Below, one piece after another: positions 50,472-57,609 of a stretch of 64,000 bases of DNA. Positions within the stretch are counted from its first letter, which is position 1; each line of letters starts with the position of its first letter. The stretch comes from a virus: IMG/VR virus record IMGVR_UViG_3300046804_003780, one strand, 5' to 3'. Position numbers and translations under genes: made by a program. Under the pieces are notes generated by a model. It searched no databases, was not told where the DNA came from, and was given only the letters and a program-made list of their open reading frames with translations.

Positions 50472-50514
50472 TTTATTGCAAAATATAAATTTTCTTAAAA
50501 AGGAGACACACACT

Positions 50515-51540
50515 ATGAAAAAACTATTTGCAGTTTTATCTTTTGCAGTAGCAGGTATAGCAACAGCAGCAGAATTTACTGGCGCTGGAGCTACATTCCC
50601 ATTTCCAATCTACGCTAAATGGGCGGAAGCCTATAAAGCACAAACTGGAATCGGCTTAAACTATCAAAGTATCGGTAGTGGCGGCGGCATTCGTCAAATC
50701 AAAGCAAAGACAGTTGACTTTGGTGCAAGCGACATGCCATTAAAGAAAGAAGAATTAGATAAAGAAGGTCTTGTTCAATTTCCAGCAATTATTGGCGGTG
50801 TAGTACCAGTTGTTAATTTAGATGGCATACAACCTGGTCAATTAAAGTTGACACCAGAAATAATTGCAAATATACATTTAGGTAAAATTACTAAATGGAA
50901 TGATAAAGCTATTGCCGAAATTAATTCAGGTGTAAATTTACCTGCATTAAATATCACAGTTATTCATCGTGCAGATGGTTCAGGCACTACATTCATTTGG
51001 ACAAACTTTCTAAGCAAAGCTAATGCAGACTTTCAAAAGATAGTAGGCGAAGGTACTGCTGTTAAATGGCCAGTTGGTGTAGGTGGTAAAGGTAATGAAG
51101 GTGTTGCAGCACAAGTACAACGCATTAAGGGTAGTTTTGGTTATGTAGAATATGCATTTGCTAAAAGAAATAAAATTGCACATACACAATTAAAGAATCG
51201 TGACGGTAATTTTGTACAACCAGATGATAGTACATTTAAGGCAGCAACAGCAAATGCAGATTGGGTTAATGCTCCAGGAATGTATTTGTTACTAACATGG
51301 CAAAATGGAAAAGATACTTGGCCAGCAACAGGTGCTAGTTTCATCTTAATGCATAAGCAACAAGCAGATGCATTAACAGGTCGTGCAGTTCTCAAATTCT
51401 TTGATTGGAGTTACAAGAACGGCAGTCAAATGGCATCTGAATTAGAATATGTACATATGCCACAAGATGTAATTAAGCTTGTTCAGGAAAATTGGAAGAA
51501 AGACTTCCGTGGTCCCGATGGTAACGCAATTTGGAAATAA
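50515..51540 (+). CDS. pstS: Phosphate ABC transporter periplasmic binding protein
   Basis: GAGATFP, YQSIGSGGG, DFGASD, RADGSGTT, GKGNEG; signal peptide; AGGAG SD. Confidence 0.97.
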   Translation: MKKLFAVLSFAVAGIATAAEFTGAGATFPFPIYAKWAEAYKAQTGIGLNYQSIGSGGGIRQIKAKTVDFGASDMPLKKEELDKEGLVQFPAIIGGVVPVVNLDGIQPGQLKLTPEIIANIHLGKITKWNDKAIAEINSGVNLPALNITVIHRADGSGTTFIWTNFLSKANADFQKIVGEGTAVKWPVGVGGKGNEGVAAQVQRIKGSFGYVEYAFAKRNKIAHTQLKNRDGNFVQPDDSTFKAATANADWVNAPGMYLLLTWQNGKDTWPATGASFILMHKQQADALTGRAVLKFFDWSYKNGSQMASELEYVHMPQDVIKLVQENWKKDFRGPDGNAIWK

Positions 51541-56939: not shown

Positions 56940-57000
56940 TAATTTAAATTTTCATATTTTTTAATTTGATTAAACAAATACATTACTGATAAATGTAAAT

Positions 57001-57022
57001 TAAAAGTGGCCCTAAGGCCACT
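57001..57022 (-). terminator. Terminator of the tmRNA locus
   Basis: AGTGGCC-TTAG-GGCCACT-TTTA. Confidence 0.8.
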
Positions 57023-57024
57023 AA

Positions 57025-57341
57025 ACTATTTTTGGTTACAAGGCATAGTTGCCCCGAAGATCATGCTGCTAGAGCAAAAACCTCATCGTTAGCTGCGTTT
57101 GCAGTTATAGTTTTGCTTGATTGACAGTCATCGCCTACTGTGTTGTCCATATCCTTACTAATTGCCCTGTCGAAACCAAATTCAGGCCCATCATAAGAGG
57201 ATTATAGCAAATGCAATCACTATGGCTGCTAAACTATAAACAATTGTTTCGCCTACTTGATACATTCTAATCTCCTTATGGTGGACCTGCCCGGGGTCGA
57301 ACCGGGGTCCAGAACACCTTTCATTCAACTTCATACAACAA
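57025..57341 (-). ncRNA. ssrA: Circularly permuted two-piece tmRNA; tag ANAANDEVFALAA; outer ends approximate
   Basis: Acceptor piece first (T-arm CCCGGTTCGACCCCGGG, then CAGGTCC-A-CCA ending at 57279). Coding piece starts GGGCCTG at 57189, giving G3:U70. Tag ORF at 57102..57061. Confidence 0.93.
57191..57265 (-). CDS. 24-aa hydrophobic peptide inside the tmRNA intervening segment
   Basis: TAAGGAG-6 nt-ATG; MYQVGETIVYSLAAIVIAFAIILL. Confidence 0.6.
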   Translation of the reverse strand: MYQVGETIVYSLAAIVIAFAIILL

Positions 57342-57470
57342 TTCTTTAAGCTGTTGACAATATACTTGACATTGCCCACACCTATGATCCAGCTCAAAAA
57401 TACGCTGAATTAATTCCTCTTTTGTCTTAAAATCTGATTCTTTAATATTTCTACAAACACAAATAATCAT
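57321..57470 (-). CDS. Bfd-like [2Fe-2S] ferredoxin (not in track)
   Basis: MIICVCRNIKE...CGQC, 49 aa. Confidence 0.65.
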   Translation of the reverse strand: MIICVCRNIKESDFKTKEELIQRIFELDHRCGQCQVYCQQLKELLYEVE

Positions 57471-57471
57471 A

Positions 57472-57609
57472 TTAGTCAAAAAGATTTTCATTAGTATCTT
57501 TAGGCTTTATCCACTCATGATACACAAGTAGCATTGCTATTGAGATGCAACCCATAAGCATAACGCCCAAAAGAAACCCGATGATAAAATATAATTGCTC
57601 AGTTCCCAT
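57472..57609 (-). CDS. 45-aa membrane peptide (not in track)
   Basis: MGTEQLYFIIGFLLGVMLMGCISIAMLLVYHEWIKPKDTNENLFD. Confidence 0.45.
   Translation of the reverse strand: MGTEQLYFIIGFLLGVMLMGCISIAMLLVYHEWIKPKDTNENLFD

Follow-up and report, generated by a model that had tools for sequence, protein, structure and literature searches.

The window analysed here is a viral stretch of 64,000 nt (IMG/VR record IMGVR_UViG_3300046804_003780). Its gene content is that of a large phage, including a T4-type large terminase, virion proteins, helicases and a PstS-like gene, and the nearest terminase from a cultured phage is that of the Pseudomonas jumbo phage PA5oct (50% identical). A permuted tmRNA with a tag of 13 residues ending in ALAA was called by ARAGORN on the minus strand at 56970–57371. 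The gene scored 129 bits against the Rfam family tmRNA_permuted (RF04321; gathering score 47) and 122.7 bits against beta_tmRNA (RF01850; gathering score 84), both covariance-model scores thus exceeding the curated gathering scores and placing it among the two-piece tmRNAs. These were the only two families to reach threshold in an Rfam scan of the window, and no intron family did so. The order is permuted, with the 3′ tRNA-like half and its CCA preceding the 5′ half and the tag reading frame (57102–57061), and the predicted acceptor stem contains the G3–U70 pair (G at 57187 with U at 57285). From the known biology of two-piece tmRNAs, the precursor would be cleaved into two pieces with removal of the spacer. 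The features of the locus are as follows (related loci are given as L numbers).

57001–57342 (−): circularly permuted two-piece tmRNA gene, in the order acceptor piece, CCA, spacer, coding piece (ARAGORN, RF04321 and RF01850)
57279–57340 (−): acceptor piece, comprising T-arm, acceptor 3′ strand and the CCA end at 57279, which form the 3′ half of the tRNA-like domain (Rfam alignment; predicted pairs 57289–57283 with 57183–57189)
57190–57278 (−): intervening segment (IVS, here also the spacer), 89 nt, between the encoded CCA and G1; presumed to be removed at maturation, as in two-piece tmRNA biology
57268–57278 (−): 5′ arm of the IVS closing helix, containing the SD TAAGGAG at 57278–57272 (predicted pairing with 57194–57204; covariation in 95 related IVS)
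57191–57265 (−): ORF of 24 codons plus TGA for a hydrophobic single-helix peptide (sequence; identical peptide in L202; same-slot peptide family)
57194–57204 (−): 3′ arm of the IVS closing helix, also coding for the last peptide codons (fold prediction and covariation)
57190–57193 (−): TGAT leader motif beside the RNase P site, source of the stop codon and potential pairing partner of ACCA (conservation; predicted pairs 57193/57279, 57192/57280 and 57190/57282)
57001–57189 (−): coding piece, with the acceptor 5′ strand from G1, the tag frame at 57102–57061 and a terminal hairpin and T-run at 57022–57005 (ARAGORN, Rfam alignment, terminator-like site)
57321–57491 (−): 56-codon ORF with a CxC...CxxC pattern, ending inside the 5′ part of the tmRNA gene (stop 57323–57321 within an Rfam-modelled helix strand)
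57472–57609 (−): ORF of 45 codons with a single hydrophobic span, located upstream in the same orientation and overlapping the start of the next ORF (no match in Pfam)
50476–51540 (+): gene for a PstS-like phosphate-binding protein (PHROG 5385, E = 2e-61)

The 45-codon ORF, the CxC ORF and the tmRNA look like one compact transcription unit ending at the hairpin at 57022–57005. The CxC...CxxC ORF had earlier been labelled Bfd-like; it gave no match in Pfam. A promoter scan found none on the plus strand at the position of the spacer, a result to be read with the reservation that the promoter types of this phage may differ from those scanned.

Read on the minus strand, the encoded CCA ends at 57279 and is followed directly by TAAGGAG (57278–57272), a gap of 6 nt (57271–57266) and an ATG (57265–57263); the 24 sense codons end at 57194, and TGA (57193–57191) is separated from G1 at 57189 by a single T at 57190. 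An earlier note on this DNA had described this 89 nt layout, from the CCA through SD, ORF and stop to one base before G1, and it proved exact when the positions were re-read from the sequence. The predicted peptide has 24 residues, with one hydrophobic helix and no basic residue, and the mean Kyte–Doolittle hydropathy of its C-terminal 16 residues is 2.86. It gave no match in PHROGs, Pfam (E up to 1) or NCBIfam and most likely inserts into the host inner membrane. When the 89-mer was shuffled 200,000 times, 1.0% of the products contained a closed ORF that began with ATG and had 24 codons or more, and 0.15% had an SD core upstream of it as well; an ORF of this kind is therefore unlikely to have arisen by chance.

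Spacer ORFs among related tmRNA genes

Related tmRNA genes were collected in two ways. A 732-aa neighbour gene retrieved 18 IMG/VR loci, in nine of which (L001, L003, L005, L006, L007, L011, L012, L014 and L015) a permuted tmRNA lay downstream of that gene. A probe placed within the tmRNA body, which is blind to the spacer and hence unbiased with respect to IVS content, matched at least 120 viral stretches; from these matches 115 spacers were taken, of which 100 were unique, with lengths of 29 to 382 nt (median 81.5 nt). In ∼185 000 species genomes the same probe matched only two MAG contigs, so that this tmRNA clade is essentially phage-borne. The window tmRNA had no blastn match among 50 697 records of cultured phages.

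Approximately 70% of the related spacers are non-coding but structured, and approximately 30% carry SD-led ORFs of 22 to 122 codons. An Rfam scan of 16 non-coding spacers found no known RNA family. A T-arm-like GGTTCGAnnCC lies inside the closing helix in the non-coding spacers of L063, L090, L033, L130, L092 and L024, which suggests small tRNA-like or other structured RNA cargo. In L092, L137, L063 and L130 the tmRNA gene adjoins large tRNA arrays of up to ∼20 tRNAs, that of L137 including a tRNA-Sec-like match.

Among the 100 unique IVS, an ORF filling at least 70% of the spacer was present in 19 of the 23 with an SD-like start and in ten of the 77 without one (Fisher p = 8e-10), the ten being short chance ORFs. 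The four SD-led exceptions hold two ORFs, or ORFs that run beyond the end of the spacer. The distance from SD to start peaks at 5–6 nt among the related spacers. Two scans showed that the same slot holds 22 distinct peptides of 21–29 residues, each with a hydrophobic span of ∼17 residues after a short head that is mostly acidic; K and R are absent from almost all of them.

Selection on these peptides could be followed in pairs of related spacers. L057 and L177 differ by 12 synonymous changes and one non-synonymous change (binomial p = 1.4e-6), L057 and L208 by 14 and three, and L216 and L150 by 12 and three. Pairwise pN/pS in the best-sampled peptide subfamily is 0.03–0.2, its variable columns are distributed over the three codon positions as 13/5/20, and the third-position and synonymous bias extends across the unpaired middle of the ORF. 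The window and L202 encode an identical peptide, with two synonymous changes, no non-synonymous change and one change in the SD–start gap. Comparison of the window with the other subfamily is saturated (pN/pS 0.6–0.9); the window peptide and that subfamily have in common their length, frame, SD context and last seven codons. The window peptide is a diverged member of the slot family, with direct support thinner than that for the subfamily.

Longer ORFs also occupy the slot and encode genuine proteins. The 86-aa spacer ORF of L034 matches the Pfam family CxxCxxCC (PF03692) with 29.4 bits (cut-off 23), and the 122-aa spacer ORF of L012 is preserved at 12 other loci, where it shows numerous synonymous changes.

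The 24-codon spacer ORF is thus very probably a real membrane-peptide gene on this comparative evidence, and we infer that it is translated. The proposal of the earlier note that the spacer is a genuine small gene is borne out by the association of SD and ORF (19/23 versus 10/77), by the 22 peptides of one type and by the subfamily pN/pS of 0.03–0.2. The comparison of homologous spacers that it had recommended, for conserved or swapped ORFs and for selection, turned up both conserved SD-led ORFs and swapped cargo, and purifying selection in the peptide family. A chance ORF was considered as a candidate and rejected, the SD–ORF association and the selection on the family both standing against it.

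The closing helix and the TGAT leader

IVS positions 1–11 are paired to the 11 bases immediately before the final four. Across 95 related IVS, helix positions 2–8 are paired in 95–100% of the spacers with three to seven pair types each (five to seven at positions 4–8); shifted-register controls gave mostly 0.2–0.7, and single higher values at the outer positions, which are rich in A/T. The median length of the closing helix is 12 bp, compared with 4 bp in shuffles. The last four bases of the IVS are TGAT in 80 of the 95, TAAT in eight and TGAC in four, ORF-less spacers included. The helix is retained equally in coding IVS (10.3 of 11 positions paired) and in non-coding IVS (10.0 of 11), and G–U pairs are more frequent in the closing helix of ORF-bearing spacers than in that of ORF-less ones.

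The fold predicted for the window is a nearly continuous helix that runs from the acceptor stem (57289–57283 with 57183–57189) through pairs between ACCA and TGAT into the closing helix. The joining pairs are predicted to be A73/U-1, C75/G-3 and A76/U-4, and the closing helix itself (57278–57268 with 57194–57204) has one predicted A/C mismatch, at 57273. The closing helix of ∼11 bp covaries and extends the acceptor stem, and TAAGGAG lies in its 5′ arm. Since the helix constrains the SD and the last three to four codons, some of the conservation reflects constraint on the RNA. The SD and the TGAT, which the earlier note had read as features of the ORF, are both present as such; they are not, however, special to the ORF, as the same helix and leader parts are kept in ORF-less spacers. 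As a speculation from the predicted fold, the quasi-continuous helix of ∼22 positions might serve as an RNase III substrate.

Folding of the complete precursor with ViennaRNA gave a probability of being unpaired of ∼0.01 for the SD and the AUG, apart from one bulged A. Without the 3′ arm, as in a nascent transcript, the corresponding value rose to 0.6–0.9 for the SD and was still 0.02–0.04 for the AUG. The excised spacer folded alone had paired ends (−17.2 kcal mol−1). With both SD and AUG predicted to be occluded, the folded RNA would be a poor messenger.

Distribution of spacer cargo over the tmRNA genes

Coding and non-coding IVS are interspersed in a tree of the tmRNAs. No SD-led closed ORF is present in the spacer of L014, whose tmRNA body is the closest to that of the window (93% over 212 nt) and lies in a matching gene neighbourhood, and in the comparison made with the tmRNA tree the bearers of the peptide family have tmRNA bodies at most 73% identical to that of the window. 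L202 and the window have 86 of the 89 IVS bases in common, with tmRNA bodies only ∼83% identical; T-arm, acceptor stem and a helix further downstream all show compensatory changes between the two, and their flanking genes are arranged differently. The PstS-like protein of L202 is 86% identical to that of the window; it is encoded ∼3 kb from the L202 tmRNA, in a different arrangement.

Copies of the 122-aa cargo of L012 that are at least 91% identical are flanked by tmRNA halves with T-arms of three kinds, and a 67% homologue of this cargo is located outside any tmRNA. The spacer of L005 (9546–9921) holds two tandem ORF cassettes, each with its own SD-arm and U-rich arm, and the stop of the first ORF overlaps the start of the second. 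The tmRNA of L097 has a non-coding spacer; a family member of 23 codons, led by an SD, precedes its acceptor piece at a distance of ∼80 nt. The association between peptide and tmRNA is hence not strictly tied to the spacer. These comparisons show that cargo is exchanged in the slot. The varied cargo of the relatives agrees with the alternative put forward in the earlier note, according to which small cargo genes insert at the CCA end.

Two side observations concern the ends and the make-up of such genes. The spacer ORFs of L053 and L070 pass the TGAT leader without a stop and extend over the first 12 nt of the tmRNA coding piece. The tmRNA of L001 (8334–8733), the closest phage by neighbour protein (75%), was missed by ARAGORN and found by Rfam at 120 bits; it has the same tag region as the window together with another type of T-arm and 5′ tRNA-like strand, a combination suggestive of a mosaic tmRNA.

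Proposed expression of the spacer ORF and comparison with known systems

The reading that we consider probable is that of a small-protein gene nested in an exchangeable, helix-bounded slot of the tmRNA gene, with the peptide translated from the precursor. The interior of the helix would be dispensable for the tmRNA, so that the position could act as a permissive slot, and recombination would fill it with differing cargo, either structured non-coding RNA or SD-led ORFs. The peptide would be made from the precursor, which probably includes the two small upstream ORFs as well. The fold predictions point to a co-transcriptional interval for translation, which would open when the SD has been transcribed and last until the 3′ arm is made 75 nt later, or until the helix closes; the AUG is predicted to be paired even in the nascent fold. 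Once formed, the helix would occlude the SD and the AUG and commit the RNA to tmRNA maturation. RNase P would then cut before 57189 and 3′ trimming would remove the trailer after 57279, leaving two pieces; with both cuts made, the spacer could not survive in the mature RNA and would be destroyed.

In a more elaborate version of translation from the precursor, which we regard as rather unlikely, the closing helix and acceptor stem could not fold while a ribosome was loaded on the SD, nor could a ribosome load once they had folded, so that a brief co-transcriptional burst of peptide would precede maturation. The message after RNase P cleavage would end one base beyond the stop codon; 3′ trimming would first take away the stop and at the same time free the SD, and late non-stop translation would be tagged by the same tmRNA. 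If this were true, a self-limiting expression circuit would be built into a stable-RNA precursor.

The earlier note had read the spacer as a complete mini-mRNA; in the rival explanation built on this, maturation would release the 89 nt as a message of its own and the peptide would be made mainly from the excised fragment. The make-up of the spacer, which consists of SD, start, ORF and stop and nothing else, with the stop one base from the RNase P site, speaks for such a message. The folds do not favour it: the SD and the start are predicted to be paired in the precursor and again in the end-paired excised spacer (−17.2 kcal mol−1), and the stop is the leader motif that ORF-less spacers have too. 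In the 3′ maturation of bacterial tRNAs the trailer after the CCA is removed largely by 3′ exonucleases, and such enzymes would erase the stop codon of the spacer first. The family member of L097, upstream of its tmRNA, does not require excision for its expression, and the excised RNA of the analogous 23S rRNA IVS of Coxiella is rapidly degraded (PMC4990558). Release of a functional mini-mRNA is accordingly given a low probability. The fold-back of the message, with the SD at its 5′ end pairing with its 3′ end, together with the small hydrophobic single-helix peptide, also recalls a type I toxin-like module, in which a membrane-damaging peptide would be encoded by a message held inactive as in hok mRNA and activated by 3′ trimming. 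Here 3′ trimming would instead remove the stop and the last codons, the slot peptides are without basic residues and no Pfam, NCBIfam or PHROG family was matched, which makes a toxin of this type a very improbable reading. The known type I toxins usually carry basic residues.

Two further explanations would assign the peptide no function or no existence. A leader-like ORF might gate tmRNA maturation, the ribosome melting the closing helix and the acceptor stem and the peptide being functionless. The geometry suits this, a ribosome terminating at 57193–57191 being expected to cover G1 and the acceptor 5′ strand, and the SD and the last codons lying within the helix; yet the sequence and hydrophobic character of the peptide are under purifying selection (pN/pS 0.03–0.2), ∼70% of the related tmRNA genes do without any ORF and other cargo consists of ordinary domains, such as PF03692. 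Regulation by a functionless peptide is thus highly doubtful. Control of tmRNA processing by translation, also raised in the earlier note, is possible and is not needed to explain the data. The ORF could alternatively be an untranslated by-product of RNA constraints, namely a purine-rich, SD-like arm and a U-rich opposite arm. The helix arms and the TGAT are indeed conserved without ORFs, chance ORFs occur in ten of the 77 non-SD spacers and shuffles yield a closed ORF of at least 24 codons in 1% of cases. Such constraints leave out of account the association of SD with ORF (p = 8e-10), the third-position and synonymous bias in the unpaired ORF middle, the steady SD-to-start spacing of 5–6 nt and the filling of the same slot by ORFs of up to 122 codons, and we hold an untranslated ORF to be very unlikely. 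The preferred reading remains that of a nested gene translated from the precursor.

Spacers of stable-RNA precursors are normally taken as non-coding and are passed over by gene callers. The present comparison points to a family of peptide genes of 22 to 29 codons, and to larger genes, hidden in the tmRNA genes of abundant uncultured large phages, and to a recurrent association of phage tmRNA genes with small membrane peptides. Conserved RNA genes can on this reading act as portable homology arms for the swapping of small phage genes. The locus also offers an easily testable case in which one precursor would be both messenger and source of a stable RNA, with the ribosome-binding site within the processing helix.

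Phage-borne two-piece tmRNAs are established, aquatic phages such as the Methylophilales phage Melnitz and pelagimyophages being known carriers; their precursors are cleaved by tRNA-processing enzymes and the intervening sequence is treated as discarded (PMC9004378; PMC11915505). The window gene resembles the known genes in its acceptor–CCA–IVS–coding order, its G3–U70 pair, its ALAA tag and its Rfam scores. It differs in that its IVS bears an SD-led protein gene and those of its relatives bear many alternative genes, whereas the IVS contents recorded in the tmRNA database paper are a tRNA-Ala gene and a repetitive element, with no protein gene (PMC11915505). Full-text searches, with limited coverage of the literature, found no published description of coding tmRNA spacers.

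The group I introns of tmRNA that carry homing-endonuclease ORFs likewise represent a protein gene nested in a removed part of the tmRNA. These introns are self-splicing, lie in the T-loop and are followed by re-ligation, and their ORF serves intron mobility (PMC11915505); in the window the ORF lies between the CCA and G1, the cargo of the slot is not endonucleases and the Rfam scan gave no intron family. With hok-type systems the window has in common a small hydrophobic peptide ORF and an SD that is predicted to be sequestered by fold-back of the 5′ end on the 3′ end. It differs in the lack of basic residues in its peptide, and its pairing is foremost a feature of the tmRNA precursor, common to ORF-less spacers.

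The closest analogue, although not of the same class, is the 23S rRNA IVS with the S23p ORF in Coxiella burnetii (PMC4990558). Both are stem-closed segments in a stable-RNA gene with an ORF inside, the stem in the present case being the covarying closing helix; both are horizontally acquired, and excision of the Coxiella segment without re-ligation leaves the mature RNA in pieces (PMC4990558), as would that of the window spacer. The host RNA differs, being helix 45 of the 23S rRNA in Coxiella, where excision by RNase III has been demonstrated experimentally (PMC4990558), and a tmRNA in the window, and the window peptide has no Pfam match and is not S23p. S23p is reported to be probably not made in vivo and its ORF to be decaying (PMC4990558), whereas the window ORF has a strong, well spaced SD and encodes an unrelated peptide whose family is under purifying selection.
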